A DNA stretch of 64,000 bases from Candidatus Parvarchaeota archaeon (GTDB lineage: Archaea > Nanobdellota > Nanobdellia > WJKC01). Positions 3,980 through 56,370 of this stretch are shown piece after piece (the stretch's first letter is position 1; each line of letters opens with the position of its first letter). The stretch is taken from assembly GCA_030615175.1 (NCBI GenBank), contig JAUWZX010000001.1, positions 62,566 to 126,565 of the forward strand, read 5' to 3'. The position numbers were made by a program, and so were the translations under genes. The notes under the pieces were generated by a model. It saw only the letters and a program-made list of their open reading frames with translations, was not told the origin of the DNA and did no database searches.

Positions 3980-4015
3980 AATGCTTTTTAATAAAACCCT
4001 CTATTATAATTGTTT

Positions 4016-8092: not shown

Positions 8093-8180
8093 TGGGCTGG
8101 GTCGGATTTGAACCGACGACCTTCACCTTTCTTATATCTTATTGTAAGGGTAACGTCCTAACCAACTAGACCACCAGCCC
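8093..8180 (-). tRNA. tRNA-Val (anticodon TAC) with canonical 14-nt anticodon-loop intron
   Basis: Acceptor GGGCTGG/CCAGCCC, anticodon stem TTACC/GGTGA, loop CTTACA[intron about 8129-8142]A, T arm GTCGG-TTCAAAT-CCGAC. Confidence 0.85.
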
Positions 8181-10036: not shown

Positions 10037-10161
10037 TAATTAAAGAGAACATTGGATGAACTTAAAAATGATGCGTCAGGCATTAAGATTTATTAATTAT
10101 TAATTAATAACTATTTTTTGCATAAAAACATTTATAAATTAATGGTTCATTATTGTTCCAT

Positions 10162-10713
10162 ATGGTTCAAAAATGGATTGAATTTGAGGTTTTACTTAAA
10201 TTGGTTGGTAGAAGTTTTCATTTAAGGGAGTTAGCAAAGCAACTTAAAGCCCCTCATACAACGCTTCTTAGAAAATTGAACGCGCTTGTTAAAGAAGATG
10301 CGTTATTCACAAAAAAGGAAGGTAAGAACAAGATTTATTTTATTAAGAAGGGTTTAGAAGCAAGGAATTATGTTTTCATGGCTGAGTACTACAAACTAAT
10401 TAAGCTAGTTACTAAGTATCCTCAACTAAGCATTATTTTAAAGGATGTTGTTAAGAAGTCGTCATCAGGTCTTATCGTTCTTTTTGGAAGTTATGCGAAA
10501 TTCACTGCAAAACCAAGAAGCGACATTGATTTATTAGTTTTATCTAGTAATAAAGCTGAGAAAAAGAAGATAGAAATGATTAATTCAAGAATTAATGTTA
10601 AACTTGCGTCAAGAATTGATGTTAATAATTTGCTTGTTAAGGAAATTATTAAGGACCACGTAATAATTAAGGGGGTTGAGAGGTTTTATGAGGAAACTAA
10701 AATTCTTGATTAA
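10162..10713 (+). CDS. wHTH + minimal nucleotidyltransferase (MNT) domain protein
   Basis: N-terminal wHTH (LRELAKQLKAPHTTLLRKLNALVKE), then LFGSYAKFTAKPRSDIDLLVL (GSx10-DxD NTase motif). The ORF track starts at TTG 10153; ATG 10162 is more likely. Confidence 0.75.
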   Translation: MVQKWIEFEVLLKLVGRSFHLRELAKQLKAPHTTLLRKLNALVKEDALFTKKEGKNKIYFIKKGLEARNYVFMAEYYKLIKLVTKYPQLSIILKDVVKKSSSGLIVLFGSYAKFTAKPRSDIDLLVLSSNKAEKKKIEMINSRINVKLASRIDVNNLLVKEIIKDHVIIKGVERFYEETKILD

Positions 10714-11170
10714 GTTATCAAAAGATGAGAAGTTGAAATTGGTTAAACCATCTGATGACGTATGCAATGCGTATATCGAGAAGTCTAATAATTCTTTAAA
10801 GTCAGCAAGGATACTTAATGAGTCAATGCTTTATGAGAACTCGATTTCAATGTCTTATTACGCGATGTATCACTCGATACTCGCCTTATTCTTCAAGTGT
10901 GGTATTAAATGTGAGAATCACGCAGCAACGATTATTTTATTAAAAGAGTTATTTAAAGAAAAGAAGTTGTTTAATGTGGTATCTAGAGCTAAAAAGGAAA
11001 GAGTAGACAAGCAATACTATATTGACTTTGAATTAACACGTAATGACTCTCAAGAATTAATAAAGACTGCAGAGGATTTCACAATCCAAATGAGATTACT
11101 TATTAATAAATTCCCTGACGAAAAAATAAAAAGAATTAGAAGTGAACTAAAAGAAGCGTTGAAAGCCTAA
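10688..11170 (+). CDS. HEPN domain protein (partner of the MNT)
   Basis: About 160 aa. SISMSYYAMYHSILALFFKCGIKCENHAAT is typical of PF05168-type HEPN proteins. It overlaps the MNT gene end, and GGGGG/GGTTGAGG lies upstream of ATG 10688. Confidence 0.65.
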   Translation: MRKLKFLIKLSKDEKLKLVKPSDDVCNAYIEKSNNSLKSARILNESMLYENSISMSYYAMYHSILALFFKCGIKCENHAATIILLKELFKEKKLFNVVSRAKKERVDKQYYIDFELTRNDSQELIKTAEDFTIQMRLLINKFPDEKIKRIRSELKEALKA

Positions 11171-11386: not shown

Positions 11387-14300
11387 TTAAGCTTTTTTAT
11401 AAACAACGTATGACACTAGCAGTATTAATATTAAAATGCTTATCCAGTCAGTCGCGCTTGCCATAACATAATTAAACACTCCTGTCGAATAAGTAGTCTG
11501 AACCAACGCAGTGAACAATAAAGTCGCATTATCAACTAATGACTCACTCGTCGCCTGAAAATTAATCGAATAAGTACCTATAGTCACAGGCATCACATCA
11601 ACATAATAAAACGCCTTGCCTCCAGGCTCAATCATTGTCGACAAAATCTTAGACTCACTGTCAACAAAACGAGCCGTTATCCCTGCAGGAATCATTGTCA
11701 AAGTATAATTATGAGGATTATCAGTCGGATTCCTAACCTCCAAATAAGCACTCCTATAACCAGCCTTGCCCTGAGCATAAGCCTGCGACTCAGGATGCAA
11801 ACTGAAATGTGACTCGTAAATATTCACTGTCCTAACATAATCATCCCAGTAATCAGACAAATTAGCCAACACCCTGAAAGTCTTGCTGCCATGAACCACT
11901 GGATTCTCATAAGCATACGAAACATGACCTGCCCTGGACGCATTAGTGCTTAATGCTAATACCCCGTCAATAGTCATCGTAACATTCAACGAGTCTAACG
12001 GGCTTGTATTGCCAGAACACAACACGTAATCAGCTGTTAACGTCTGGTTAGTCCCTATTAAAGTCCTGCTCGGAACATGATAAGCCCCCACTATATCATC
12101 AATACTGAATGAATAATGACTCTCAGTAGTATTACCTAAATCACTTACTGCATAGATTTTGGCATTATAGTCCTTGCAGTCCCATGCCAATGGGGAGTAT
12201 GTCCAGTTGCACCTGTACAGGAATCTCCCAGCGTTTTCGCACGTGAATTCTTCTGAATATACTTCAGCTCCTGCTGAATCATTAACGTCCAGGTGCACTG
12301 CAGTCACTGCCTGCTCTGTAGTGAATACTAGGACTGTTAAGTTCATTTGCTCGCCTGTCCTGTCAACCTTATCGTCATAAGTGAATTGCATTATATCAAA
12401 CGCCACTTCATCTGCTTCCTGAGTAATACTTACTGGTATCTTCTTCCACAAGTAAGTGTTTTCATGGATTTTGTAGTGATGGTCTGAATTATTAAAGACC
12501 GTGAAGTAGAACCTGCCTCCATACGAGTCGCCTGCACTGACTGCTGTCTGCTGGAATCCTATTGGATAATATGAAAACTTTATTAACGAACTCGTAATAT
12601 TGAATTCGTATAATGTATTATTCTCCGCACCCCACGTCTTTTCTTTGAAGAATCCTATAGCATCATGCGTCTGGTTGTTCAGGAATACAACCCAGTCAAG
12701 ACTTGATAATTCTATGCTAAAACTAAGGTTATAATTAGTTACTGTTCCTGAATCATTAATCACGATATTAGTGAAGCGGGTCTTATTTAATGGCATTTCA
12801 AAATACTTTAACCAATCAATTGTTTCACCTGAATTAAACGTTAAATTCTCATCCAACATGAAATAATAAGTGTCTGGCATCGTGATGTTAACCCCCGCCG
12901 GATGACTGCCCTTCACGCTGCCATTGTATGAGTGCACTGCTACTGAAGGAGTCATTTCCAGTTTAGTTGTTAAACCAGTAGCTGTTCTTAACTCACCAAG
13001 CGTTACTGTAGTATCATTATACTCAATTGTTTTTAATCCATAATCAGTAACGTCATCCAACTCATTATGCACGCTGCCTAACTTATCAAACACTGACAGC
13101 ACCTGATACTTTGTAGGACTTAAATCAAGCCTGTAAACTGAATTACTCACATTCCACGTCGGCGCTGTCTCATTAATTATTCCATTACTGTAAGATTTCA
13201 CGTTATGACCTATTGGAGTGTAGTATAACGCGTACACATTACCATCCCTGTTAAAAGGCGAGTCATTCCCTGGCATGTTTATCGGAAAATAAATATCTGC
13301 ATGAGTCAAATTATTATCCGCCCCGCAAGTAGCATTCAATATCATTAACGGGACTTCATAGTAATCACCTGTCGGCAGCACATTAACCACCCTGATTCCT
13401 AACTCGTCTTCAACATCATTATAGTCCCCATCCCCATTAACATCATTGCAGTATGCAGGGTCAGGGAAATCATAACTGTAATTGAATAATTCATTAATCC
13501 TTGAAATATTAGTTACATGACTCATTGACAGGTTAACCTTGTACTTGAATAACTCACTGTCATGACTTAACCACTCATTCTCCCACACCAAACTCAAATT
13601 CTTAACCAGGAACATAGCGTAATTATGCTCACCGTGCTTGCCGTTAAACGCCTGCAAGTGATAATAACCAGTGGCGCCCAGCTCGTAAGTAGCGTTATAG
13701 CAGTTAGTGCCGCACGAAGTCATGTTAATCCTCACCTCAGTAAAATTAGGTTTTATTAACACCACGTTCGGCATGCACTCGCTCGTGACATTAATCCCTA
13801 CAGTGTCCCCTGGATTTAACATCATGCTTGACAAGTTAAACGTCGGAGTCACTGTTGAATTACAATAATAACCAAAGTCGCATACCCTATCAGTTATGAA
13901 ATCCTCATCCTCATCGCACACAACTCCCTGCGGAATAGATACAGCATTACAGCAGCACTTAGGACTTCCTCCCCAATCCTCACCAGTGTCCTCACCGCAA
14001 CACCGAGCCCAAGCATTACGCATAGTACTGTAATCACTGTCCCATGAATATCCTATGGCATCCCAATACATAATATAACTTGAATCGTATCCGTACAGTG
14101 TAAAATATTTAAATGAAACTGGATCTCCATAAAAACCATCAACAAATTGTCCTTTATAATCTCCATCAATCCAACATTTCCACCAATTCGTAGAAGGATC
14201 GCCTGTAGTTAAATCAAATTCTAATTTAAAGTGATACAAATGATCAACAGAATAACTTGCTAATAATTCATGCCAAGTACCATCATAATATTTTAAGCCG

Positions 14301-17300
14301 CCGTCATCATCAAATCTTAAATAAATAGCTTTAGTTGAAGTATCTCTTAAATGAAATATACCCCTTTTATCGTTTACAGAAATCCCCCACCAAAATTCAA
14401 TAGTTCCTGTAGTTCTCACTCCAATATTATTAGTTCCTTGTAATGTATCTCCACTTGCATCTTTATCATATTTAATAACTTTCTTATGACTATCAAAATC
14501 AGAAATTATAGAAATTGTTCCCCCATTATTGTTATATCCATCAAGAAAACCAATATCAGTCCCAGTAGCACCAACAGCATCATCACTGAATGAGTATGTT
14601 GCATCATAGTCTGAAGTAGTGCTCCACGTTAGCCCTTCTGCCTCGCAGTTAGATTGACTCTGGTCCAATGCAGTATAATAATAATCACTGTAGTAGCAGA
14701 TGCTGCCGAACGCGTTAGAATCATTGTAGAAGTAATCACTTGTTGAGTCGTCACCGCAACAGGAAGAGTAAGCAGATGACTTATACAAAGCCATTACTTC
14801 ATTAGCATTAAGAGAACGATTATAGATGCGGGCATCATCAATAGTGCCATTAGCATAATACGTTGTTGAACTACCATGTCTTCCTATTTTACGATTAGCA
14901 AAATTATATGTTAATGAACCTGTTATCCCTGTCTGCTCACCTACATATTCACCATCAACGTAACTTTTTTTTGTTGAACCATCAAAAATAAATCCTATAT
15001 GGTGCCAGTTACCATCCGTTAATCCAGAACCATTATTAGACACGAAACGAGCAGTTGTATAAACACCAGTCCTAAGCTCACCAGTTGATACAGGAATACT
15101 TATCTCTAATTCTTGGCCACCAAATATTATATGGTAACCTCCTGCAGGAGAACCTTCGGATTTGAACCATGCAAAAGCAGAAACTTGAGTTGTGTATCCT
15201 AAATTATTAGATAAATCTATATAATCACCACTACCATCAAAACTCAAAGCATTACCATACTTGCCACTAACCCAGGAAGCATCATAAACTGTGCCGTCAT
15301 TAACGCCTGAATCATCACTCGCAAGCGTTCCTGAGGACTCATCAAAACGCCAATGAGCAACGAGCCCGTCACTGATATTATAAAGCCAGTTATAAGAATA
15401 CTGCTCGCAAACAGTCCGATTAAAATCAATTGACTGATGAGTGAAACTGCCATCCTGACAGAAATAAGTAGTATTACTTAAAGTACCATTATAGAAATCA
15501 TCACTAGCCGCATCATCACCACAGCAAGGAGCATAAGTATTATCACCAACACTGTAATCAGAGTCCCATGAGTAACCAACAGCATCAATGTAAGACGCAA
15601 CAATGTTTGCAGTTCTTTCAAATCTTAAATTATCAACACTGTCCCCTGCATCAAAAAAGGCTCCGTCATTAACAATTAAATCATCATCAACATACCAGTC
15701 AAAAGTGTCAGCAGCACAATCAAAAACCACTTTATGATGCTGCCATGCATTCTCACTAACTGCAACACCAGTATCAGTTAAACTACCCCCTTGATACTTA
15801 TAATTACCAGCATGAACATGCAATGCAAACTGCATATTATCAGCAGCATTATTACTATCAACTAATACCATAAACTGATAATTACCAGACCCATCATCAT
15901 CAAGCCAAGCCCAGAACTCAATAGTGCCTGTAACGACATTGCTAAAATCATTTCCAATATAGTAGTTTTCTGTAAAGTTAATCACTTTGTTATGGCCACC
16001 CCAATTATTAATAACCTCCACAACATTTGTGCCCCCCTCAATAAAATCAATAAAACCAATATTAGTACCAGTAGTGCCTACAGTCTCATCAGTGAATGAG
16101 TAAGTGCCAGGGTAATTAGTATTATTAATCCAGTCATGAGTTAATGCCTCGCAAGCAAACTTGCTTGAATCAGGCTCGATAACACTATAAGTACAGCTGC
16201 CACTACTGCAAGAATAATTCCTGTACTCAGTGCTATACACGCCATCAAGAGTATCACAATCCTCTGAAGAGAAACCGCAGCCAGAATCACTGCAAACACC
16301 AGCATAATACCTAACATTACCAGTACAATAACTGGTTAAATCACAATTAGGACAGCCAGTACCAGCATAATAACAAGTCACGCCTGACGCGCAGTAACCA
16401 TCACCAGCGCTGCCAGAATCACAAGTCAAATAATTAATAGGATAAGCACTTGCAGTGCTGCCATAACTACCCTCATTCGCAGCACCATCCTTTGCCCTGA
16501 CCTTATAAGTATACTGGGAGAAACAATCCAAACCACTATCAACATAAGGACTTGAAACCCAACCACTATCAGTACTACCAGGATTGCTTGAAGTCTCATC
16601 AACCTGATAAGAATCAACACCAGTAGTGACTGTATTTGAACCAGTTGCATTTACTTTATAAACTCTTAAATTCCTGAAAAATGTAGTTCCGTCATTAATT
16701 TCATCCGGGTAATGATAAGCCCCTACTCTAATTTCATGTTCAAATTCCTCTGTTACTGTAAATGTTTCATGAAATGGAGTCCAGTAAGTATTACCTGTTC
16801 CAAAACTCGTGCTTTTAATCCAACTATCAGTTGTATTAGCAGTCCATATGAAAACTGTTGATGTTCCTCCTGCCGCGTTTCTCGTGCTGTCAACTCTTAC
16901 TTCTCCTTCTAATATAAATATGTTTCCTACTTCTAATGAACCCATTGTCACGATATCTTCATCAAGATAGTAGTTATACCCTGTGCCTGAATAATTATGC
17001 GCTTCTATACTATTCTCTAATAAATTATTCACATTCCCACTCTCATCAAACGATTTCAAGTAGTAATAATAATCATCACCAGCGTCACTAACACTGCTCC
17101 AACTCACTTGAAGAGAAGTCGTGGACGCTTCAGTCACAGTGGGCGCGTCGGGTGTGCCAGGAACAGTACCATCAATAGCTCCTGTATCACTGTACGTATT
17201 ATCCATAATGAGAGGAGTGAGTCTGAAATTATCATAATAATACTTGGTTGCGGCAACGCCATTCCTGTCGTCCTTTAAAATAAAAACTCCGCTACTAGTA

Positions 17301-20300
17301 TCAGACCACTTCCTGATAAGCACACAATCAACATAAAACCTAAAAACACTGCCGTCAAAAATAACCTTCCAATGCTGGCCAAAAGCCCCGGCAACAGTAA
17401 CGCCATCAACCTGATAATCACCACTAAGCCTTCGTATGTAATTCCCGCCAACCAGAATGCCATGCTCGCTCCCGTCATTCAATATATCAACCTCGAGCTC
17501 GAAAGGCTCGCCAGAACCAATATCCTCAATCAAAGTCAAATAAGTGTCAGCGCTGCCAGAAGAATTAGACCATAACTCGCCGTCAGTAACACCAACAAGG
17601 CCATCACCCAAAGTAGCAGTCCACACAGGATTACTCGTGTAATCACCATCACTAAAATCATCCCACACGCCGCCAACAGGAGTGTAATTCCCATCAGAAG
17701 TGTTGCTCCTGTAAAAACCATGAGATAACAAACCAGACTGCATATCATTAATAACCTCGCTTTGACTAAGAACACGATTATAAATACGCACTTCATCAAC
17801 AATGCCATTGAAATAGTGTCCAGAACCTGCTGCTGCAGACGCTATAGTTACATCATAAGGATTTGAAACCAAACTAATTGCAGGAGTACTATCTGAACTA
17901 ACTAATAATCCATCAACATACATAACTGCTGTCGTTGCAGAAGCATCCCAAGTCACACTCGCATAATGCCAATCAGTATCATCAAAATCATAAAAAGGAT
18001 CAACACAATTCCCATAAGTTGTATCACAAATATAAAAATTAAGACGACCACTACTCGACCATAATTTCCAACCAACAGTACCATAACTTCCAGTACTCCC
18101 TGTAGCAGCAACAATTGGCTCCCTATACGCTGTAAGATTCTCTGACTTAAACCACACTAAAACAGAAAAATCATTAGCAAGAGAATCCAAATAAGGAATA
18201 TCTTCAACAAGCACAGTATTAGGTGAAACGCCTCCATCAAAACTTAATGCCCCACCATGTTCACCAGTAGTATAAGTTCCACCATTAATACTCCCATCAT
18301 AATCATATATACTGTGGTCTTGAGCCACGCTACCACTACCCTCCTCAAAAGGCAAATACAATAATAAACTGTCATTTCCCTCAACAAAAGTTAAATCCAT
18401 TTCATTATTCACGTTATCAGCAGTCACTGTCAAGTTAGGCGCTGAAGGCCCAGTCCTGTCTAATGTAACATTGCAGACAGTTGAACTCCAATCACTATAA
18501 TGACCCGGACTGCTCTCCACATCCTGTATCCTAACCCTGTAACAATAAACAGTATTATCACTTAAACTGGAATGAGTATAAGACGTGTCAGTACCATAAT
18601 ACCTCTGCGCAGAAGAAGGAGTCGTCTCCTCAACACTATACTCATAACCAGTTGGCGGACTGCCAGACCACGCAATTACCATCTCACCCAAACCAGAATT
18701 CAACGATTCATTATCCTGAAATAAAACAGAATCCAAAGAAGGAGTTGAAAGAGCAGTGCAAAGATAACTACTGCAATACTCACCCGCCGCGCAATCACTA
18801 TCACCACAACAATCACTGCCACTACTACCAACACAAGAACTGGAACAGCAAATACCATCCTGCACGTAATCAGCACCAGACAAACCACTATCACACGAAT
18901 CAGTATCAACACAATTACCGCAACCCTGAGTATAACGATTACTACTAGCAGAATCAACACAAACCTCACCAGACGTTATACAATTAGCATCAGCATCAGT
19001 AACACCACTACCATCATTAACGCAAATACCATCAGCAGAATAAACCCCACTACTAACAGAATTATCACACTGCTTCTCACTAGTCACATCATCATCATCA
19101 CAATCACACTCACTATCAGTCACGACCTCATCAGTACAACAAGAACTGCCACCACAAAGACCATCCCTTAAATAACTCGCGCCAGCAAGAGAACTATCAC
19201 ACTCCCTGCTACCAGAACAACCACTATAATAAGTAGAATCCGCCTTAGAAATCACAGCAGTGTTAGCCCTGCAATCAGTACTAGCGCAAATACCGGCAGC
19301 AGTACCATCAAAAGCACCAACAACCTCACACTTAAGACCAGACGAATCACAACCACACACATCATCACTAGTGCCAAGAGAAGCATCACTGCCATAACTC
19401 ACATCATCAGTGCAAAGAACTCCATCAACACAAGCACGAGTAGAATTATAAAAATTATCACTAGTAGTATCATCACCACAACAAGGATCATTATCACCAG
19501 TAGTAGTGCCAGCAAACCAATCATCCTCACCTGAATTACAAGTTGACTGAGAATCATCAGGCTCACAACTACCACCACAAGTCTCCTCATCACAGCCCTG
19601 ATCCACCCAGGCAGTATAAGAGCAAGTGCAGGAACTAGTGCAAGAACTTGCAGTCCTTGTATACAAGTTACCTGAAGTCAAACCAATGTTCTGACCGCAA
19701 TCACTCGTATAAGTGCAGTCACTAACATTATCACAATCAGCCTCACAATTAGCCTCACTCTGAGTACAAGTACCATCACTCCAACCACTATAAGAACAAG
19801 CACAGGAAGAAGTGCAAGACCTAGTTCTCGTCTGATAAATAGTGCCACTACACTGAGTAAGAGCCTCAGTACAGTCAGTAGCAGAATCACAATCAGCACC
19901 GCAATTAGCCTCACTCTGAGTGCAAGTACCATCAACCCAACTACCATAACTACAAACACAAGCACTAGTGCACGCGCGGGACCTGGTCTGATAAATAGTG
20001 CCACTACACTGAGTAATGGCAGTGCAGTCACCAACAGCATCACACTGAGCGCCACAGGCCTGGGAACACGTCGAAGTACATGAACCGCCAGAACAAGTAT
20101 AAGAACCGCAATCCGCTGTAACACACGTAGAAAAAACGCAAGCTGTTTTCGTACACGAACCAGTCTTCCTAGCACAACTACCACTACATGCTACAGCGCA
20201 GGAAGCACAATACCAAGGAGGGGAAGGAGTCTGTACAGAAGTATAACAACTAGCATACATGGTGTCCTCATTCATGCAAGCATAATTAGTCGAGAAAGCA

Positions 20301-20359
20301 ATGGAAGATAAGGATAGCAAAACTAAAACTACTATTCCTAAACGCGACTTCACCCTCAT
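11387..20359 (-). CDS. giant secreted cysteine-rich surface protein (2990 aa) with Cys-rich modules, FN3, LamG/ConA-like domains and a C-terminal TM anchor
   Basis: Single uninterrupted ORF.
- Signal peptide MRVKSRLGIVVLVLLSLSSIAFS.
- Three CSGTIYQTR..C..C.CSY..W.DG.CTQSEANC modules.
- Four CCG[DE]D modules.
- FN3-like segments (e.g. TSLQVSWSSVSDAGDDYYYYLKS).
- Two Laminin_G_3-type domains (...FNGIVDEVRIYNRVLSQSEV; ...GTIDDARIYNRSLNANEV).
- Many N-x-S/T sequons.
- C-terminus ATDWISILILILLVSYVVYKKA. Confidence 0.85.
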   Translation of the reverse strand: MRVKSRLGIVVLVLLSLSSIAFSTNYACMNEDTMYASCYTSVQTPSPPWYCASCAVACSGSCARKTGSCTKTACVFSTCVTADCGSYTCSGGSCTSTCSQACGAQCDAVGDCTAITQCSGTIYQTRSRACTSACVCSYGSWVDGTCTQSEANCGADCDSATDCTEALTQCSGTIYQTRTRSCTSSCACSYSGWSDGTCTQSEANCEADCDNVSDCTYTSDCGQNIGLTSGNLYTRTASSCTSSCTCSYTAWVDQGCDEETCGGSCEPDDSQSTCNSGEDDWFAGTTTGDNDPCCGDDTTSDNFYNSTRACVDGVLCTDDVSYGSDASLGTSDDVCGCDSSGLKCEVVGAFDGTAAGICASTDCRANTAVISKADSTYYSGCSGSRECDSSLAGASYLRDGLCGGSSCCTDEVVTDSECDCDDDDVTSEKQCDNSVSSGVYSADGICVNDGSGVTDADANCITSGEVCVDSASSNRYTQGCGNCVDTDSCDSGLSGADYVQDGICCSSSCVGSSGSDCCGDSDCAAGEYCSSYLCTALSTPSLDSVLFQDNESLNSGLGEMVIAWSGSPPTGYEYSVEETTPSSAQRYYGTDTSYTHSSLSDNTVYCYRVRIQDVESSPGHYSDWSSTVCNVTLDRTGPSAPNLTVTADNVNNEMDLTFVEGNDSLLLYLPFEEGSGSVAQDHSIYDYDGSINGGTYTTGEHGGALSFDGGVSPNTVLVEDIPYLDSLANDFSVLVWFKSENLTAYREPIVAATGSTGSYGTVGWKLWSSSGRLNFYICDTTYGNCVDPFYDFDDTDWHYASVTWDASATTAVMYVDGLLVSSDSTPAISLVSNPYDVTIASAAAGSGHYFNGIVDEVRIYNRVLSQSEVINDMQSGLLSHGFYRSNTSDGNYTPVGGVWDDFSDGDYTSNPVWTATLGDGLVGVTDGELWSNSSGSADTYLTLIEDIGSGEPFELEVDILNDGSEHGILVGGNYIRRLSGDYQVDGVTVAGAFGQHWKVIFDGSVFRFYVDCVLIRKWSDTSSGVFILKDDRNGVAATKYYYDNFRLTPLIMDNTYSDTGAIDGTVPGTPDAPTVTEASTTSLQVSWSSVSDAGDDYYYYLKSFDESGNVNNLLENSIEAHNYSGTGYNYYLDEDIVTMGSLEVGNIFILEGEVRVDSTRNAAGGTSTVFIWTANTTDSWIKSTSFGTGNTYWTPFHETFTVTEEFEHEIRVGAYHYPDEINDGTTFFRNLRVYKVNATGSNTVTTGVDSYQVDETSSNPGSTDSGWVSSPYVDSGLDCFSQYTYKVRAKDGAANEGSYGSTASAYPINYLTCDSGSAGDGYCASGVTCYYAGTGCPNCDLTSYCTGNVRYYAGVCSDSGCGFSSEDCDTLDGVYSTEYRNYSCSSGSCTYSVIEPDSSKFACEALTHDWINNTNYPGTYSFTDETVGTTGTNIGFIDFIEGGTNVVEVINNWGGHNKVINFTENYYIGNDFSNVVTGTIEFWAWLDDDGSGNYQFMVLVDSNNAADNMQFALHVHAGNYKYQGGSLTDTGVAVSENAWQHHKVVFDCAADTFDWYVDDDLIVNDGAFFDAGDSVDNLRFERTANIVASYIDAVGYSWDSDYSVGDNTYAPCCGDDAASDDFYNGTLSNTTYFCQDGSFTHQSIDFNRTVCEQYSYNWLYNISDGLVAHWRFDESSGTLASDDSGVNDGTVYDASWVSGKYGNALSFDGSGDYIDLSNNLGYTTQVSAFAWFKSEGSPAGGYHIIFGGQELEISIPVSTGELRTGVYTTARFVSNNGSGLTDGNWHHIGFIFDGSTKKSYVDGEYVGEQTGITGSLTYNFANRKIGRHGSSTTYYANGTIDDARIYNRSLNANEVMALYKSSAYSSCCGDDSTSDYFYNDSNAFGSICYYSDYYYTALDQSQSNCEAEGLTWSTTSDYDATYSFSDDAVGATGTDIGFLDGYNNNGGTISIISDFDSHKKVIKYDKDASGDTLQGTNNIGVRTTGTIEFWWGISVNDKRGIFHLRDTSTKAIYLRFDDDGGLKYYDGTWHELLASYSVDHLYHFKLEFDLTTGDPSTNWWKCWIDGDYKGQFVDGFYGDPVSFKYFTLYGYDSSYIMYWDAIGYSWDSDYSTMRNAWARCCGEDTGEDWGGSPKCCCNAVSIPQGVVCDEDEDFITDRVCDFGYYCNSTVTPTFNLSSMMLNPGDTVGINVTSECMPNVVLIKPNFTEVRINMTSCGTNCYNATYELGATGYYHLQAFNGKHGEHNYAMFLVKNLSLVWENEWLSHDSELFKYKVNLSMSHVTNISRINELFNYSYDFPDPAYCNDVNGDGDYNDVEDELGIRVVNVLPTGDYYEVPLMILNATCGADNNLTHADIYFPINMPGNDSPFNRDGNVYALYYTPIGHNVKSYSNGIINETAPTWNVSNSVYRLDLSPTKYQVLSVFDKLGSVHNELDDVTDYGLKTIEYNDTTVTLGELRTATGLTTKLEMTPSVAVHSYNGSVKGSHPAGVNITMPDTYYFMLDENLTFNSGETIDWLKYFEMPLNKTRFTNIVINDSGTVTNYNLSFSIELSSLDWVVFLNNQTHDAIGFFKEKTWGAENNTLYEFNITSSLIKFSYYPIGFQQTAVSAGDSYGGRFYFTVFNNSDHHYKIHENTYLWKKIPVSITQEADEVAFDIMQFTYDDKVDRTGEQMNLTVLVFTTEQAVTAVHLDVNDSAGAEVYSEEFTCENAGRFLYRCNWTYSPLAWDCKDYNAKIYAVSDLGNTTESHYSFSIDDIVGAYHVPSRTLIGTNQTLTADYVLCSGNTSPLDSLNVTMTIDGVLALSTNASRAGHVSYAYENPVVHGSKTFRVLANLSDYWDDYVRTVNIYESHFSLHPESQAYAQGKAGYRSAYLEVRNPTDNPHNYTLTMIPAGITARFVDSESKILSTMIEPGGKAFYYVDVMPVTIGTYSINFQATSESLVDNATLLFTALVQTTYSTGVFNYVMASATDWISILILILLVSYVVYKKA

Positions 20360-20402: not shown

Positions 20403-20747
20403 TCATTGAATAATGCAAGACACGTTTCCCAATAAGAAGACTTCGCAGGCACCTGTTTTGTTAACGCACTCATTAATATACTGCTTCACTTGTGGCTTCA
20501 GCATGAACCAACGGCACTCCTCACAACCAAAAGGATTCCCCAACAATTCCTGGCACAAATCCTGACATTCTGAATAAGATAACGTATCCTCCACATAATA
20601 TGACGCAACCTCCACTCCTGAAGCGTTGGACTCAATACCAGTGAATATAATAGGGAAAAAATAAACAAGAATGAAGAAGATGAACATTAAAAGCGCTATC
20701 GCAGTTATTATAACCATATTAATTGGCAATTTTTGTTTAGCCACCAT
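20403..20747 (-). CDS. small N-terminally anchored Cys-rich protein
   Basis: 114 aa. One TM helix (MVIITAIALLMFIFFILVYFFPIIF), then a roughly 75-aa ectodomain with 8 Cys (CQDLCQ..GCEEC..EC..GAC..SC). Same strand as the two giant genes and lies between them. Confidence 0.5.
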   Translation of the reverse strand: MVAKQKLPINMVIITAIALLMFIFFILVYFFPIIFTGIESNASGVEVASYYVEDTLSYSECQDLCQELLGNPFGCEECRWFMLKPQVKQYINECVNKTGACEVFLLGNVSCIIQ

Positions 20748-20930
20748 GAAATAAATAAAGAAGTATCAGGAATATATAAATATTAAGAATTAAAATAAAA
20801 AAATAATAAATTAGTTGCAACTACTTCATATATCAGTCCTGAAGCCACACTTAATATTAAAGCAATTTTGAGATTGGTATAAACAAAGAACCCTGAATAA
20901 ATATTAATTACTGGTTACGCTAACAATGAA

Positions 20931-21200
20931 GGGCGCATCCTTGGGTTGGCAAGGTAAGCGCTTAAAGGTTTAACTGAACGGGCTCCTCCACCCCGTTGAC
21001 CTGAAAGCACGACTCAACATGCTTAAGGCTGCTTCCTCCCGGATCTGACCCGGTTCACAAGTTGAACCGCCAGACAGGGCGAGGCTTCGCAGAAACCTGA
21101 ACAGGCCCTTAAACCCAAACCAAGTCGTCCCAAGGCATTCAGCCCCACCATAAGGGGGTTTGCGGTAACAGGGAACCCCTAACTCCCCGGCCTAGCACCC
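20931..21200 (-). ncRNA. signal recognition particle RNA (archaeal 7S/SRP RNA)
   Basis: GC-rich non-coding island. The minus strand starts GGGTGCTAGGCCGGGGAGTTAGGGG. It contains the helix-8 signature GGTCAGATCCGGGAGGAAGCAGCC (compare the conserved GGUCCGGAAGGAAGCAGC). The 5' GGGTGC pairs with the 3' GCGCCC, and long helix-5 pairings are visible (CCTTGGG/CCCAAGG, TTTAAGG/CCTTTAA). Ends are approximate to within a few nt. Confidence 0.85.
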
Positions 21201-21222
21201 AAGTAAAGAATTAGTAATTGGG

Positions 21223-21251: not shown

Positions 21252-24200
21252 CTATCTGCTGCGCTTGCGGTACACAATAAGCGAAGCAAGGATAAGAAGC
21301 AATAGGAAGCTGAAGTAATCAGTAGCTCCTGCAGTGTGAACCCCGAAAAAGCCAGTCTCCTTGGTGAACACTGTTACTTGAAAGCCAATGGAATCAGTGA
21401 TGTTAGGGCATGCGCCAGTGCTCGTGAACGCTAATTGAACGTCGCGCTCGCCAGAGCTTAAAGGAAGCACTGTAAGCCTGATTAACCGCTTAGCGCCTGG
21501 AAGAATTGAAAAAGTTTCGGCATTAAATTCCCTGTTATTAAAAGACTTTTCACCAGTCCTGTAAGTAATTAATAAACCATTATCATAAGATGTTGCAGGA
21601 CTGTACTCAACAGGTATGTTGCCTAGGTTTGTCAAAGTCACTAATACCCTTCCAATCTCATTTAAAGCAACAGGTATTGCAGTAGTAATGCCTGGACTGA
21701 CTGATGAAATATCCAGTGGATTCAATATTGTAAAATTAAAATCCTTTAATAATTCATCCCAGCCGCCAGTCGCAGTAGAGTAAGAACAATTTAATTGCAT
21801 ATTATAAGACTTGCCAAAGTCAGCGCAGCTAAAAGTTCCGAAATCAAAAGTTACTAACCCTGAGTCTCCAACCCTTACAATTGTTGGATTACTAGGGTTT
21901 GGTATGTAACTAAGTGTTGTGTTAAGAATACAGGTTAAGTTCTCAAGCAGTTCATCGCCACTATTTCTTATCAGGAATTCTGTAACGAAGTCGCCTCCCA
22001 AGTAACTGCTGTTAGAATCTGAAGCTGAAATGAATATTCCAGGCAGTCGTCCATTCTCGCATACTGCATCAATATTCCCGTCATTATCAAAGTCGCAGGT
22101 CCCTCCATTATTAATAACAGCGCCATTACAGCAGCAGGTCAGCGTTAAATTGCCAAAGTCATCACTATCCCCGTCATCACCGCAGCACCTACTGCCAGTC
22201 GCTGTTGCACCAGCCAGCCATGTATAACCATAGTACTCGCAAATAGTCTGATTAACATCAATAGCCTGCTCAGTTAAAACACCATCATGACAGAAATAAG
22301 TAGTGGTAGCAAGAGTGCCGTTATAGAAATCATCACTAGCCGTGTCATCACCGCAGCAAGAAGTGTTATTGCCAATAGTTGAACCAGTAAGCCAAGTGTA
22401 ACCACCTGCCTCGCAAAAAGTCTGCCAAGCATCCCTATCACTAGATGGTGAACCATTATAGCACGCGCGACTGGAATTATAGAAATCATCACTAGTCGTG
22501 TCATCACCGCAGCAAGGGCCTTTACTCCCGATGATTCCTGTATTTTCAATAAAAGAAAGAGTGTCATCATAATAATTCGTAACCACAATATCAAGAATTC
22601 CATCTTCATTTAAATCACCTAAAGCAACAAATGATGATTCGGCTCCAGTAGCACCAGTAACTTGAGCGTCAAAAGTGCCGTCACCATTACCAGCAAGGAA
22701 AGAATAAGTATCATCATCATAATTTACAGTAACAATATCAAGATTACCATCATTATTTAAATCACCTAAAGCAATATCTAGAGGATTAGTCCCGACACTA
22801 ATGGTTACTTGAGCATCAAAAGTGCCATCACCATTACCACTAATAAAAGAAACATTATTATCATTATAATTCGCAGTCACAATATCAAGATTACCATCCT
22901 TATCCAAATCACCAATGGCAACACCTATAACCCAATTACCAACAGCACCAGTCACTTGACTATCAAAAGTGCCATCACCATTACCAGCAAGGAAAGAATA
23001 AGTATTATTAGCATTATTTGTAACCACAATATCAAGATTACCATCCTTATCCAAATCACCAATGGCAACACCAAAAGGATTCCATCCAGTAAGAATAGTT
23101 ACTTGAGCATCAAAAGTGCCATCACCATTACCACTAATAAAAGAAACATTATTATCATTATAATTCGCAGTCACAATATCAAGATTACCATCCTTATCTA
23201 AATCACCTAAAGCAAGAAATGCAGGACCACTCCCCGTGGCACCAGTTACTTGAGCGTCAAAAGTGCCGTCACCATTACCACTAATAAAAGAATAAGTATT
23301 ACTAAGACCGTTCGTAACTACAATATCAAGATTACCATCATTATCTAAATCGCCAATGGCAACATCATAAGGTTCGGTTCCAGTAGCACCTGTCACTTGA
23401 GCATCAAAAGTGCCATCACCATTACCAGCAAGGAAAGAATAAGTATCATCATCATAATTCACAGTCACAATATCAAGATTACCATCATTATTCAAATCGC
23501 CAATGGCAACACGCATAGGTGAAACCCCAGTACTGCTCGTTACTTGAGCATCAAAAGTGCCGCCACCAGTAAACCATTCATAACCCTTTAACTCGCACAC
23601 GCCTTGACCGCTCGTGTAATTAATATAGTCTCCAAACCAGTCCTGATAATAATGATGGTCAGCGTCTAAGATAATGCCTCCATAACTGCACATTTGAGAT
23701 GAATTATAGAATATGTCAGTGAAGTCATCATCACCGCAGCACGCATCATTACTGCCAGTAGTGGTGCCGGAAAGCCAGATGTAACCACTTGCCTCGCAGG
23801 CAGTCTGGTTAAAATCAATTGATTGCTCAGTGAAAACGCCATCCTGACAGAAATAAGTAGTGGTAGCAAGAGTGCCATTATAAAAATCATCACTGGCTCC
23901 ATCATCACCACAGCAAGCATCATTATTGCCAGTGGTAGTGCCAGTAAAGTAAATATAACTATACTGCTCGCAAATAGTTTGATTAACATCAATAGCCTGC
24001 TCAGTGAAACTGCCATCCTTACAGAAATAAGTAGTGCTGCCAATAGTGCCATTATAGAAATCATCACTAGCAGCATCATCACCGCAGCAATTAGAGTAAG
24101 CAGATGATTTATACAAAGCAGTTATTTCATCAGCAGAGAGAGCGTGGTTATAAATGCGGATATCATCAATAGTGCCGTTATAAAAGTAAATTGCACCATA

Positions 24201-34776: not shown

Positions 34777-36762
34777 GTGAAACGCGAAAGAAGAATACTG
34801 ATAACCGCAGCATTGCCGTACGCTAACGGCAAGTACCATTTAGGTCATGCCAGAAGCACTTACTTGCCGGCAGACATTTTCGCACGATTCCAGAAACTAA
34901 ACAAGGCTGACGTTGCCTACATATGCGCAACAGACGAGCATGGAACACCAATATTACTTAATGCTGAAAAAGACAGGAAAAAACCAGAAGAATACGTTAA
35001 GTACTGGCATAACTACTTTGACAAGTTATTCAAGGAGTTTGGCTTAATATATGATATTTTCTACAGAACCCACTCAAAAGAGAATAAAAAACTAACAATA
35101 GAATTCTTTAACAAAGCAAAAAAGAACGGATACATTTACGAACAAGAAATTGAGCAATACTACTGCGAAAAGGATAAGAAATTCCTGCCAGACCGCTACG
35201 TTACAGGCAAGTGCCCATACTGCAATGCAGAAGACCAGTACAGTGATTACTGCGAAGACTGCGGAAAAGCATTCATGTCAGGAGAAATACTAAATCCTAA
35301 ATGCAGGTTATGCAAAGCAAAACCAGTGATGAGGAAGAGCATGCACTACTTCTTCACATTAAACGCGCTGAAAAAAGAGATAAGCAATTACCTGCAATTC
35401 AATGAATATTTACAAAAAGACGTTAAGAACTACGTCAAGCAATGGATTAAACAAGGATTAAAGGACTGGGATATAACAAGGAATTTGGAATGGGGATTCA
35501 AGGTGCCAGGCAAAAAAGAACAGGTATTCTACGTATGGTGGGACGCGCCAATAGGATATATTAGTTCAACAATAAAATGGGCTAAACAAACGAAAAAGAA
35601 TTGGGAGGATTACTGGAAGTCAAAGAAAACAGAGATATACCACTTCATAGGAAAAGACATAGTATACCATCACTACTTATTCTGGCCTGCAATGCTGATG
35701 AGCGTTAAAGACAAGTACACGCTGCCGAAAATGATTCCAACAAGAGGCTACTTAAACCTGGAAGGCAGGAAGTTTTCAAAAAGCAGGAACTGGTCAATAA
35801 CACTGGAAGATTTTTTCAAAGTATTCCCAGCAGACTACTTAAGGTTTTACTTAACAATGATAACCCCTCAAGCATCAAGCGATGCAAACTTTAGTTTAAA
35901 TGAATTCAAGAAAAGAATAAATGATGACTTAATAGCAAACTTCGGCAACCTGTCAAGAAGAGCATTATACTTCATAGAAAAATTCTTCGACAAGAAAGTG
36001 CCAAAACCAACAGAACTGGATGCAAAGGATAAAGGAGTAATTACTGACGTAAAGAAACAGCATGAAAAAATAACGAAGCTCTTAGAAGAAGTAAGATTAA
36101 TGAAGGCACTGCAGGAAGTGCTTAAATGCTCATCAATAATTAACACTTACTTCCAGGAAAAAGAACCATGGAAAACAAAAAATCCTAACTGTTTATACGT
36201 GACTCTTAACCTGATTAAAGGATTATGCATTGAATTATCACCATTCATACCATTCAGCACAAACGAATTATGGAAGAGTATAGGACTAAAAGGCAAAGCA
36301 GAAGAACAGGACTGGAGTAAGGCATTTGAATTAAGCATTAAAGCAGGTCATGAGATAAAATCAAGCAAGCCATTATACAAGCTGGTAAGTGATGAAGAAA
36401 TTAAAAAATTAAAAAGAGTGCTGGGAAAGAATTTAGAGCTGAAAGAGGAATTAGTGGAGCTTAAAAATTTTAAGAAAATAAAGTTAAGGATTGGCAGCAT
36501 CCAGCGGGCGGAGCGAATAAATGATAAATTACTAAAACTAAAAGTTCTTGCTGACAGGGAAAGAATAATGATTGCAGGCATTGGAGAACAATATAATCCA
36601 AAAGAATTACTAGGCAAGAAAGTAGTTGTGATAATTAACTTAAAACCAAAAGTTATTGCAGGAATTAAAAGTGAAGGAATGGTGCTTGCAGCAGAGAAGA
36701 AAGGCAGAATAGTATTACTAACAACCATGAAAGACATTACTGAAAATGCAGTTGTATTATAA
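34777..36762 (+). CDS. metG: methionyl-tRNA synthetase with C-terminal tRNA-binding (Trbp111/EMAP-like) domain
   Basis: 661 aa, GTG start. PYANGKYHLGH (HIGH), Zn knuckles CPYC...CEDC, KFSKS, C-terminal OB-type domain (LRIGSIQRAERI...). Confidence 0.9.
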   Translation: MKRERRILITAALPYANGKYHLGHARSTYLPADIFARFQKLNKADVAYICATDEHGTPILLNAEKDRKKPEEYVKYWHNYFDKLFKEFGLIYDIFYRTHSKENKKLTIEFFNKAKKNGYIYEQEIEQYYCEKDKKFLPDRYVTGKCPYCNAEDQYSDYCEDCGKAFMSGEILNPKCRLCKAKPVMRKSMHYFFTLNALKKEISNYLQFNEYLQKDVKNYVKQWIKQGLKDWDITRNLEWGFKVPGKKEQVFYVWWDAPIGYISSTIKWAKQTKKNWEDYWKSKKTEIYHFIGKDIVYHHYLFWPAMLMSVKDKYTLPKMIPTRGYLNLEGRKFSKSRNWSITLEDFFKVFPADYLRFYLTMITPQASSDANFSLNEFKKRINDDLIANFGNLSRRALYFIEKFFDKKVPKPTELDAKDKGVITDVKKQHEKITKLLEEVRLMKALQEVLKCSSIINTYFQEKEPWKTKNPNCLYVTLNLIKGLCIELSPFIPFSTNELWKSIGLKGKAEEQDWSKAFELSIKAGHEIKSSKPLYKLVSDEEIKKLKRVLGKNLELKEELVELKNFKKIKLRIGSIQRAERINDKLLKLKVLADRERIMIAGIGEQYNPKELLGKKVVVIINLKPKVIAGIKSEGMVLAAEKKGRIVLLTTMKDITENAVVL

Positions 36763-38502
36763 CTCTAAAACAGCCCTAATCCTGCGGACACCGGCAGCAA
36801 TTGACTTCTCCTTAACAATCCTGAACTTGCCTAACTCCCTAGTATTCTTAACGTGCGGTCCGCCGCACACTTCCTTGCTGAAATCACCAATAAAGTAAAC
36901 AAAAACTTTCTCACCATACTTTGCCTTGAACTCAGCATGAGCGCCTGCCTTCCTGGCCTTTTCAAAAGTCATTTGCTCATGCCAAACCCGTAGGCCAGTC
37001 TTTATTTTTTCATTAACCAAATCCTCAACTCTCCGCAATTCATCCTCAGTTAATTTGCGGTCAAAACTAAAATCAAAACGAAGCCTTTCAGGAGTAATAT
37101 TAGAACCCTTCTGTCTGACCTCCTTTTTAAGAACTCTTCGCAAAGCTTCTGCAAGCAGGTGAGTAACAGTGTGAAGCTTAATTGTTTCCTCAGACGCGTC
37201 AGCCAATCCTCCTTTAAACTTCTTCCCAGCACTAACACGTGACAACCCCCTATGCTTTTCATAAGCTTCTGTAAAACCCTTAACATCAACTTTTATTCCC
37301 TTCTCAACAGCAATTTCCTGCGTCATTTCAATAGGGAAACCATAAGACTGATACAATAAGAATGCATCCCTGCCTGAAATCCTGCTCTTATTCCTGGCAA
37401 TTTTTTCAAAAATCCTTAACCCGCGCTCAAGAGTCTTAAGGAATCGCTCCTCTTCCTTAACAAGCTCTTTAATAATGAAATCATGCTTTTCATCCAGAAT
37501 TGGATACTCTTTTGCATAATTTTTAATAACCACTTCAGCAACTGCCTGGCAAACACCCTTCTCAATTCCCAGTAAACGGGCATGCCTGATAGCGCGGCGA
37601 ATAAGCCTTCTTAAAACATATCCCTGGCCAAGGTTTGAAGGAGCAACCCCTCTCTCGTCACCAAGAATAAAGGTGGCTGCGCGGGCATGGTCAACAATAA
37701 TGCGCAATGACTTTAATCCCTGTCTCTTAGCAAGACTCTTAACAGCATTAATTAAAGGAATGAATAATTCAGTATCATAAACAGACTTCCTGTTTTGAAG
37801 CATTGCAACCATGCGCTCCACCCCCATCCCTGTATCAACATTTTTCTGCCTTAACCTTTCATACCCCCCATCCTTAATCTTATTATATTCCATGAAAACA
37901 TTATTCCACACCTCAAAGTACTTACCGCAACCGCAGCCAGGCCTGCACTCAGCACTGCACCCAGGCACGCCTGAATCAATAAAAATCTCACTGCAAGGAC
38001 CGCACGGACCTGACTCAAGACCCCACCAATTATCTTCCTTAGGAAGAAAGTAAATCCTGTTTTTAGGAATTCCAAGAGAAAGCCACGCCTCGGCTGATTC
38101 CTTGTCACGAGGCGCAGCCTTATCTCCTTTAAAAACAGTAACATGAAGCTTTTTAGAATTAATTCCTAATACTTTAACCAGGAATTCATAACTCCAAGTA
38201 ATCGCCTCCTTCTTAAAGTAATCACCCAAAGACCAGTTGCCAATCATTTCAAAAAAAGTTAAATGAGAATCATCATCAATATCTTCAATATCATCAGTTC
38301 GCAGGCATTTCTGAACACCAACCAAGCGCCTGCCTGCCGGGTGAGGCTGACCAAGAAGGAATGGGATTAAGGGGTGCATGCCTGCAGTAGTGAATAACAC
38401 AGCAGGATCATGCTCAGGAATTAAAGGCGCTGACTTAATAACGGCATGACCTTTCTTCTTAAAGAAATCCAGGTACTTTATCTTTAATTCACGTGCATCC
38501 AT
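36757..38502 (-). CDS. alaS: alanyl-tRNA synthetase, bacterial-type, minimal (581 aa)
   Basis: N-terminus ELKIKYLDFFKKKGHAVIKSAPLIPEHDPAVLFTTAGM and FFEMIGNWSLGDYFK, DTGMGVERM align collinearly with bacterial AlaRS. Editing-site motifs HTVTHLL and CGGPHV are present. The beta-barrel part of the editing domain and the whole C-Ala domain are absent. Confidence 0.85.
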   Translation of the reverse strand: MDARELKIKYLDFFKKKGHAVIKSAPLIPEHDPAVLFTTAGMHPLIPFLLGQPHPAGRRLVGVQKCLRTDDIEDIDDDSHLTFFEMIGNWSLGDYFKKEAITWSYEFLVKVLGINSKKLHVTVFKGDKAAPRDKESAEAWLSLGIPKNRIYFLPKEDNWWGLESGPCGPCSEIFIDSGVPGCSAECRPGCGCGKYFEVWNNVFMEYNKIKDGGYERLRQKNVDTGMGVERMVAMLQNRKSVYDTELFIPLINAVKSLAKRQGLKSLRIIVDHARAATFILGDERGVAPSNLGQGYVLRRLIRRAIRHARLLGIEKGVCQAVAEVVIKNYAKEYPILDEKHDFIIKELVKEEERFLKTLERGLRIFEKIARNKSRISGRDAFLLYQSYGFPIEMTQEIAVEKGIKVDVKGFTEAYEKHRGLSRVSAGKKFKGGLADASEETIKLHTVTHLLAEALRRVLKKEVRQKGSNITPERLRFDFSFDRKLTEDELRRVEDLVNEKIKTGLRVWHEQMTFEKARKAGAHAEFKAKYGEKVFVYFIGDFSKEVCGGPHVKNTRELGKFRIVKEKSIAAGVRRIRAVLEL

Positions 38503-52374: not shown

Positions 52375-52426
52375 TTAAAAAGTAAAAGAATTAAATAAAT
52401 AAATAACTTATTACTAATGAATTAAA

Positions 52427-53071: not shown

Positions 53072-53134
53072 ATTGTCTTAACAAATTTTTCTAAGAAAAC
53101 TTAATAAAACCTAAAACGCTTCAGTTAGAAATTG

Positions 53135-54739: not shown

Positions 54740-54791
54740 TTAAAAAAATAAAAGAACTTCCCATTTATAAGTTTTCCAAAAAACTCTCTGA

Positions 54792-55079: not shown

Positions 55080-55140
55080 TGTGATTGTGTTGTCTTTGAA
55101 AAAGAAAACATTATAAGCTTCATTTCCTTTGGATTTTTTT

Positions 55141-56355: not shown

Positions 56356-56370
56356 AGTTTTTTCCTATTC

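Follow-up and report, generated by a model that had tools for sequence, protein, structure and literature searches.

The DNA examined here is a stretch of 64,000 nucleotides (nt; hereafter the window) from contig JAUWZX010000001.1 of a genome labelled Candidatus Parvarchaeota archaeon. It contains two giant genes on the minus strand. We have analyzed the one that occupies 21252..28472, which is a single open frame of 2406 codons plus the stop by the list of open reading frames (ORFs) and by translation. An initial annotation made from the sequence had described its product as a modular, rapidly reshuffling, adhesin-like surface protein, a paralogue of the 2990-amino acid (aa) product of the neighboring gene. 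The modular architecture is fully supported by the domain content. From the N-terminus the protein comprises a signal peptide, a Cys-rich head, propeller 1, three CCGDD modules, propeller 2, two CCGDD modules and a LamG domain; this is followed by three further CCGDD modules, propeller 3, two CCGDD modules, a variant module, two beta-sandwiches, a linker, a transmembrane (TM) helix and the sequence RKRSR. No frameshift was found. The coordinates are collected in Table 1.

Table 1. Features of the 2406-aa gene and its immediate surroundings, in window coordinates
Feature	Position	Strand	Evidence
Whole gene; predicted type I membrane protein, ectodomain ~2350 aa	21252..28472	-	ORF list, translation, hydropathy
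Promoter-like A/T box TTAATATTTATATATT, ~25-40 nt 5′ of ATG	28497..28512	-	read from upstream sequence
Sec-type signal peptide, aa 1-29, MRGVFFPLRVNKVFLLLVVSVLLFTLAEG	28386..28472	-	hydropathy scan
Cys-rich head, aa 30-277, 3 repeats of ~51 aa (…C.G.IYQTR…C.C.YG.WVDG.C…)	27642..28385	-	
Propeller 1, 7 blades, aa 278-612; most diverged of the three blade sets	26637..27641	-	Pfam, motifs, blade alignment
3 CCGDD modules, aa 613-804 (at aa 620, 677, 734)	26061..26636	-	motif scan and hidden Markov model
Propeller 2, 7 blades, aa 805-1142; canonical GD[IM]D[GA]DGD[LIM]D loops	25047..26060	-	Pfam, motifs, blade alignment
2 CCGDD modules, aa 1143-1253	24714..25046	-	motif scan
Laminin_G_3 / concanavalin-A-like lectin region, aa 1254-1458	24099..24713	-	Pfam
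3 CCGDD modules, aa 1459-1640	23553..24098	-	motif scan
Propeller 3, 7 blades, aa 1641-1981; exact 49-aa period	22530..23552	-	Pfam, motifs, blade alignment
2 CCGDD modules, aa 1982-2091	22200..22529	-	motif scan
Terminal variant module, aa 2092-2145, CCGDD…CCC…C-D-x-D-x-D-G-x-x-D-x-x-C	22038..22199	-	alignment, motif scan
2 tandem Ig-like beta-sandwich domains, aa ~2146-2250 and ~2253-2369, predicted membrane-proximal stalk	21363..22037	-	AlphaFold2
Linker (~13 residues), G-A-T-D-Y, TM helix, RKRSR, stop	21252..21362	-	alignment, AlphaFold2 helix, hydropathy
Archaeal signal recognition particle (SRP) RNA, directly downstream of the 2406-aa gene	20929..21202	-	Rfam RF01857, 114.3 bits vs gathering score 96.5
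Neighboring 2990-aa mosaic paralogue: 4 CCG[DE]D modules, 2 LamG_3, ATDW-TM-KK tail	11387..20359	-	

The hydropathy scan reveals two hydrophobic segments, one at each terminus of the protein. The polypeptide is strongly acidic, with 343 Asp and Glu residues against 90 Lys and Arg, and contains 94 Cys. There are 48 N-x-S/T sequons, compared with 30.8 ± 5.0 expected from shuffled sequences. Identity as a type IV pilin (class III signal, PF07790) was rejected, as the N-terminus is of the Sec type and has no match to Pilin_N.

Each of the three blocks of FG-GAP repeats that had been placed at about 26650-27640, 25050-26050 and 22545-23565 was recovered in those ranges by Pfam and motif mapping. 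Every block consists of exactly seven blades with the motif D-x-[DN]-x-[DN]-[GDS]-x-x-[DE], spanning aa ~297-600, 816-1125 and 1659-1965 from motif positions and blade alignment. The Pfam family FG-GAP_3 (PF13517) matches 20 stretches (E = 4.5e-110; 360.7 bits vs a gathering threshold of 26.9), and FG-GAP (PF01839) matches with E = 1.4e-27 (95.5 bits vs 22.1). The Ca loop conforms to the strict motif in 17 of the 21 blades and to a relaxed motif in two more, and is degenerate in blades 1 and 3 of propeller 1. In propeller 3 the scaffold of the blades is nearly invariant, with the variation located in two loops; these blades are 76-79% identical to one another in nucleotide sequence, and the longest exact repeat of the gene (101 bp) lies among them. 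The three blocks are thus probably seven-bladed propellers of the integrin type, predicted to be loaded with Ca2+. The closest solved sequences to propeller 2 are the Psathyrella velutina lectin PVL (PDB 2bwr and others) and the Agrocybe lectin AAL2 (4tqj), with E ~5e-9, both of which are seven-bladed integrin-like FG-GAP propellers, as predicted here.

The single LamG domain of the initial annotation is found by Pfam as Laminin_G_3 (PF13385) at aa 1298-1450, extending over model positions 1-150 of 151 (E = 5.6e-27; 95.2 bits vs 27.6). Its relatives in the PDB include 4qvs and 5hon, and it resembles carbohydrate-binding modules (CBMs). The structure nearest to it is that of an ‘S-layer domain-containing protein’.

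The propellers and the LamG domain are interspersed with the CCGDD modules. A motif scan counts eleven of these, the number originally noticed, with motifs at aa 620, 677, 734, 1148, 1200, 1462, 1520, 1578, 1987, 2039 and 2096. Alignment gives a consensus of ~55 residues, C-C-G-D-D-x3-D-x-F-Y-N-x-[ST]…C…D…C-E-x2-G-Y-x-W. We compared 176 instances, i.e. the modules of the 2406-aa protein, of its neighbor and of representative hits; exactly four Cys are present in 144, and a sequon occurs at the same position in 142 (81%). In the terminal variant module the Ca-loop-like motif is bracketed by Cys and is invariant in seven homologues. The Pfam and NCBIfam models gave no match to the module, even at E ≤ 10, and a full-text search of the literature for the CCGDD motif returned no relevant paper.

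An exhaustive profile search with HMMER of 1.84 billion representative proteins gave 86 matches at E ≤ 1e-3, of which 56 were at E ≤ 1e-10, and the carriers are almost all metagenome-assembled genomes (MAGs) of DPANN archaea. A degenerate DNA pattern encoding CCGDDxxxDxFYN was found in 45 stretches among 185,579 species genomes, all but two of them in DPANN-labelled MAGs. One exception is a contig binned as Methanobacterium, whose sample series also yielded two Nanoarchaeia MAGs. The other, in Burkholderiales, has stop codons close by and a GC content of 62%, and was rejected as having arisen by chance. The same pattern was present in 29 stretches of 241 million metagenome records and in none of 2.9 million viral contigs. 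In 39 proteins from elsewhere the module is accompanied by FG-GAP propellers (21), RCC1-like propellers (6), BNR propellers (3), LamG (3) or a sialidase-like CBM (3).

AlphaFold2 confidently models the module as a compact unit of three short strands and one helix (predicted local distance difference test, pLDDT, 88.8; 109-sequence alignment). Comparison of this model with the PDB and BFVD using Foldseek gave no meaningful match (best E = 2.8-7); since Foldseek is weak for domains of ~55 residues, the proposal that the module has its own fold is provisional. Taken together, the searches point to an undescribed domain family, almost confined to DPANN, with a conserved potential glycosylation site. 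Disulfide bonds within the module are assumed.

We note a group of ~26 metagenomic CCGDD proteins (P0132-P0204) that start M-[RK]-K-[AG]-I-T-P-V-I-S-V-x-L-L, resembling archaeal class III pilins. They contain ~6-8 FG-GAP motifs each, and many end with a CCGDD-type module. The Pilin_N scores of such proteins are 12.6-18.7 bits, below the threshold of 25.2.

At the other end of the protein, the C-terminal region that had been described as beta-rich is predicted by AlphaFold2 to form two beta-sandwiches preceding the TM helix (pLDDT 80.9 for the cassette). Foldseek relates these to generic tandem Ig-like pairs, such as transglutaminase C-terminal domains, RbmA and ASH domains. The last 317 residues recur at the C-terminus of six other proteins with 35-43% identity. 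The ATDY tail reported for 21252-21355 is present, as GATDY followed by the helix FSFLLLLILASLIVY and the basic cluster RKRSR. The Asp preceding the helix is invariant in the homologues, where the motif [PSA][GA][LWT]D[WYF] recurs (PGLDW, SAWDW, GATDY, SATDW). A search of PDB sequences with the tail gave one weak, uninformative match (E = 0.16).

This tripartite layout of short motif, TM helix and basic cluster recalls the substrates of archaeosortases. Membership of the curated C-terminal sorting families was rejected, as the tail falls below their cutoffs; it scored 13.8 bits against 15.5 for GlyGly-CTERM and had no hit to PGF-CTERM, and for Loki-CTERM only the tail of a homologue scored, at 14.3 bits against a cutoff of 19.9. 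None of the 52 ORFs scanned in the window, which covers 64 kb of a contig of ~727 kb, matched an exosortase or archaeosortase family. The GATDY-type C-terminus is therefore either a plain TM anchor or an undescribed signal. It is possible, although we regard it as somewhat doubtful, that these features belong together. The module would then be a new DPANN-specific extracellular family that folds in a way of its own, brings an N-glycan site with it and has Cys for disulfides or metal. It would serve as the common connector of a surface toolkit restricted to the lineage, joining the propellers, lectin domains and pilin-like proteins through which host cells are contacted, and x-x-D-[WY]-TM-basic would be a new anchoring signal of the sortase type.

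The Cys-rich head corresponds to aa 51-283 of the 2990-aa neighbor, with 67.5% amino acid identity over 240 aa and 79% nucleotide identity. All the head Cys are kept in both giants, and the ratio of nonsynonymous to synonymous substitution rates (dN/dS) is 0.42 with dS ~0.70. The conservation of every Cys, together with this ratio, gives the head the signature of translated sequence. No match to it was found in Pfam, NCBIfam, the PDB or a database of 5.8 billion proteins, the neighbor being its only partner seen. On these searches the orphan head is an apparently new, lineage-specific element.

This bears on the start of the gene. The public gene call (P0001), on a contig of 726,884 bp, is of 2165 aa and starts at an internal GTG corresponding to aa 242 of the long ORF; it is thus without the signal peptide and the Cys-rich head (window 27750-28472, aa 1-241). 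The long form is the better supported, because it alone includes a signal peptide, and because its head is closely similar to the N-terminus of the neighbor and evolves as translated sequence. The neighbor's head was likewise not found in the 5.8-billion-protein database, and may therefore be truncated there in the same way as P0001.

Upstream of the long start lies the A/T-rich box TTAATATTTATATATT, and we infer that this may function as a promoter. The identical 16-mer is also found 5′ of a small ORF that precedes the gene of the 2990-aa neighbor. That ORF (20403-20747, minus strand; box in the upstream region 20748-20928) encodes 114 aa, has a single TM segment and is rich in Cys toward its C-terminus, and lies just 5′ of the 2990-aa gene. 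In contigs of related strains (runs X1 and X3) the end of the SRP RNA (20929) is joined to sequence like that at 28506 with 33 nt between them, suggesting that the small-ORF region is absent or different in those strains.

There are long-range duplications within the gene. The PCCGDD repeat that had been noticed at the outset is a 43-aa peptide, PCCGDD..SDDFYNSSRACYNGSPSSDRDAWQTFCEAGGYTWL, at aa 1147 and aa 1986, whose copies are the same except at the [AT][AT] pair; the 298 nt around them show 85% identity. The CCGDD pair at aa 1143-1253 and that at aa 1982-2091, where the duplicate covers aa 1985-2084, have 85% nucleotide identity, and the first CCGDD triple (aa 619-791) is 71% identical to the third CCGDD block, which is also a triple. 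Overall the internal repeats are 70-86% identical in nucleotide sequence. In the duplicated modules it is chiefly the third codon position that differs, consistent with purifying selection. We rejected the possibility that the repeats are the target of a diversity-generating retroelement, as their mismatches are without adenine bias and there is no reverse transcriptase among the window ORFs scanned.

Similarity to the neighboring giant is mosaic, being confined to the head, the CCGDD-LamG-CCGDD cassette, the terminal variant module and a short motif in the tail; nothing else aligns. The cassette is 48% identical over 331 aa (80% over 317 nt) and the terminal CCC-variant module has 30% amino acid identity. 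The initial annotation had the two proteins sharing head, LamG and tail. The first two of these stand, but the tails have in common just the variant module and the short ATD[YW]-TM-basic motif, as the ~225-aa beta-sandwich region cannot be aligned.

The gene is carried on an archaeal chromosome of the DPANN / Nanoarchaeota group. Genes nearby in the window encode a DnaG-type Toprim protein, FttA/aCPSF1, a proteasome subunit, methionyl- and alanyl-tRNA synthetases (MetRS and AlaRS), an archaeal S-adenosylmethionine synthetase, aIF5A, aRF1, Orc1/Cdc6 and PolD. The MAGs most closely related to this genome carry the labels Nanoarchaeia, Woesearchaeota, Parvarchaeota or Nanoarchaeota, and related strains are found in metagenomes of cold seeps and marine sediments. 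The SRP RNA gene is located between the two giant surface-protein genes, so that the RNA of the secretion-targeting particle is encoded amid what are the largest secreted proteins of the cell.

The order of genes in the Nanoarchaeia MAG locus L001 mirrors that of the window, i.e. MetRS - proteasome - FttA - CBS - … - DnaG - P0003 - SRP RNA - a giant of 2757 aa. Identity to the window is 66% for FttA, 55% for DnaG and 77% for the SRP RNA. The downstream giant of L001 contains ten CCGDD modules, compared with four in the neighbor here. P0003 is a 1531-aa ‘VCBS repeat-containing protein’ of Candidatus Nanoarchaeia archaeon SO_2017_LW3_144, with 41% identity over aa 1462-2406. The closest relative is L022, from the Parvarchaeota-labelled MAG Meg22_1618_Bin_99, with 83% identity in FttA and 71% in DnaG. 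P0003 and the L022 gene resemble the gene of the window in their place between DnaG and the SRP RNA with a second giant beyond, in having a propeller flanked by CCGDD modules, and in the C-terminal cassette of CCC-variant module, two beta-sandwiches, x-x-D-[WY], TM helix and basic tail. Unlike the 2406-aa protein, P0003 has two propellers and seven CCGDD modules, is without LamG and Cys-rich head, and begins with an unannotated domain of ~220 aa that is absent from the 2406-aa protein and occurs twice in its 2990-aa neighbor. The L022 orthologue differs from both, starting with signal peptide - propeller - CCGDD - the unannotated ~220-aa domain - CCGDD - propeller.

The reshuffling claimed at the outset is real, since syntenic orthologues differ in their sets of modules and the similarity to the neighbor is mosaic. 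‘Rapidly’ must be taken as relative, given the dS of ~0.70 in the shared head. Modules have thus been acquired, lost and duplicated, and have been swapped between the two genes, on a time-scale of genus- or family-level divergence. This conserved two-gene locus around the SRP RNA, with its reshuffled module content, is new.

The locus invites some further observations. The SRP RNA of L001 is at 14888-15165, and the tail cassette followed by SRP RNA is also present in L006 and L015. DnaG adjoins CCGDD genes in L022, L021, L009 and L029 as well. The ~220-aa domain (…TYSFTD…VDAVGYSWD…) has no Pfam hit and is always bracketed by CCGDD; it is located at aa ~1388-1612 and ~1898-2120 of the 2990-aa neighbor, aa ~12-237 of P0003 and nt ~6300-6900 of L022. 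Between DnaG and the orthologue in L022 there is a 420-aa ORF on the opposite strand (3647-4909, minus) with a P-loop-like GLRRVGKT discerned by eye, and this has no counterpart in the window.

Elsewhere in the window, directly downstream of the 2990-aa gene, are NTP_transf_2 and HEPN genes in overlapping ORFs (10153-11170, plus strand) that look like an MNT-HEPN toxin-antitoxin pair. An 88-nt tRNA at 8093-8180 (minus strand; Rfam tRNA 59.5 bits) was assigned an odd four-base anticodon by ARAGORN, and is probably an intron-containing archaeal tRNA. AlaRS (36757-38502, minus strand) is of 581 aa, shorter than usual for archaea, with the catalytic core and the second additional domain; it may be a split or truncated enzyme like those described from some nanoarchaea. 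A 911-aa P-type cation ATPase with Cation_ATPase_N and Cation_ATPase_C domains (49639-52374, minus strand), of the Ca2+ or Na+/K+ type, is encoded in the same window as the two giants rich in Ca loops. The region 52000-61300 contains Orc1/Cdc6 (55129-56355) followed by the small and large subunits of PolD. The GC content is 0.33 at 52-56 kb, where the cumulative GC skew turns, and this is probably a region of replication origin.

What might the 2406-aa protein do? From its domains we consider it reasonably probable that it is a C-terminally anchored, Sec-exported and probably heavily N-glycosylated surface protein loaded with Ca2+, in which the propellers and LamG are likely to bind ligands, so making a multivalent adhesin. 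That the protein is ‘adhesin-like’, as the initial annotation had it, can reasonably be inferred from its domains. Binding of glycans is suggested because PVL and AAL2 are the closest solved sequences to propeller 2, because the LamG domain resembles carbohydrate-binding ones, because the variation in propeller 3 is in two of its loops, and because a part in host recognition or attachment has been proposed for the LamG-type surface proteins of DPANN archaea (PMC10266531; bioRxiv 10.1101/2023.10.27.564410). The co-occurrence of the module with propellers, LamG and sialidase-like CBMs in other proteins was counted as further support for a binding role.

In such a protein the TM helix and the two Ig-like beta-sandwich domains would form a membrane-proximal stalk, from which three rigid propellers and the LamG domain would be strung outward on the short, compact CCGDD modules. 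The latter would act as rigid glycosylated spacers, comparable to EGF-like modules in role if not in descent, and the Cys-rich head would lie at the distal tip. The propellers and LamG would most likely bind glycans of the host cell envelope or environmental polymers. Between lineages the module content of the pair of giants flanking the SRP RNA gene is remodelled, through duplication inside a gene as well as through exchange from one gene to the other.

Several points weigh against a multivalent adhesin of this kind. We found no public RNA run that holds the gene. The similarity of the propellers to PVL appears to be at the level of the FG-GAP repeat and not of the sugar pocket. Since extracellular disulfides may not be stable in the anoxic cold-seep and marine sediments that harbor the relatives, the four Cys of the module could instead bind metal. 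The blade and module counts rest on a short-read assembly. Lastly, a conserved position of a housekeeping kind is unusual for a variable adhesin, and would also fit a core component of the envelope (S-layer-like).

That last point leads to the strongest alternative, in which the protein is a core part of the cell envelope (S-layer or an S-layer-associated canopy) and the pair of giants forms a structural outer layer. The position among DnaG, FttA, the proteasome and SRP RNA is kept in at least five DPANN genomes. Moreover the C-terminal TM anchor, Ig-like stalk and many sequons are like those of proposed DPANN S-layer proteins (bioRxiv 10.1101/2023.10.27.564410), and the structure closest to the LamG domain is that of the S-layer domain-containing protein. 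However, the module content varies strongly among close relatives, which is hard to reconcile with the unit of a lattice, and the candidate DPANN S-layer proteins so far have Ig-like folds in ~1000 aa and not arrays of propellers. We think a structural layer unlikely.

Less probable still is that the propellers are protein-binding or enzymatic scaffolds for the capture or processing of extracellular polymers, and not for adhesion between cells. Many bacterial FG-GAP/VCBS giants are thought to work in this way; such proteins, which combine many domains, are the best full-length matches outside DPANN, and CCGDD proteins elsewhere carry BNR/sialidase-like and CBM domains. Yet Pfam and other domain scans detected no catalytic domain across the 2406 aa, and the bacterial matches cover at most 15% of the query, in the propellers only.

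Gross assembly error is unlikely because the frame is intact, the repeats have diverged and there are seven blades per propeller, and we consider it very improbable that the repeat structure is even partly an artefact (with blades or modules collapsed or expanded, or the two giants fused into a chimera), since against the 101-bp exact repeat within propeller 3 and the fragmentary unitigs of public runs (related strains only, at ~5x, with at most 15% of k-mers present, as low-depth unitigs, and with many joints inside repeats that were not trusted because their sides were of 21-44 nt) must be set repeats that are just 70-86% identical, a frame unbroken over 7.2 kb, a longest exact string common to the two giant genes of 40 bp, and independently assembled orthologues with the same module grammar.

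The multivalent adhesin thus remains the reading we favor. DPANN archaea are tiny, mostly uncultivated and thought to live attached to other microbes. With its conserved position and variable architecture, this locus is a concrete candidate for the means by which they recognize and hold a partner. The definition of the module would improve the annotation of dozens of ‘hypothetical’ DPANN surface proteins, and would provide a sequence handle with which to find the attachment apparatus in metagenomes. The locus also exemplifies how the signal peptide and head of such proteins can be lost in public gene calls.

We can compare the protein with a number of known systems. By analogy only, the CCGDD module is like the EGF-like and cbEGF modules of animal matrix proteins, which are small, Cys-knotted, acidic, often glycosylated and arranged in tandem between larger binding domains. 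It differs in having four Cys that include a vicinal CC pair, and there is no evidence of common descent; membership of the EGF-like families was rejected on its having four invariant Cys rather than six and on the lack of a Pfam match at E ≤ 10 or of a Foldseek match. The lectins PVL and AAL2 have the seven-bladed propeller predicted here, but are soluble, single-domain fungal proteins that bind N-acetylglucosamine. The bacterial giants that combine FG-GAP/VCBS (PF13517) with LamG (in Bacteroidota, Ignavibacteria, Planctomycetes and others) are similarly multi-propeller proteins with Ca loops, secreted or anchored, and often contain Laminin_G_3. They differ in having bacterial sorting domains (e.g. 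the C-terminal domain of the type IX secretion system, PF18962) and spacers of the Ig, Big or cadherin type, and none was recovered by the exhaustive CCGDD profile search. The LamG/PKD-type surface proteins and giant anchored proteins of cultivated DPANN (nanohaloarchaea and Nanobdella) are built from Ig/PKD/LamG arrays, those of the SPEARE type carry a VirB4-like ATPase, and FG-GAP together with CCGDD has not been reported for them. They resemble the protein described here as large ectoproteins that vary between lineages and carry lectin-type domains as well as glycans, the last being predicted here, and a role in host attachment has been proposed for them (PMC10266531; bioRxiv 10.1101/2023.10.27.564410). 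As an architecture, the giant FG-GAP/LamG surface protein belongs to a class that is already known.

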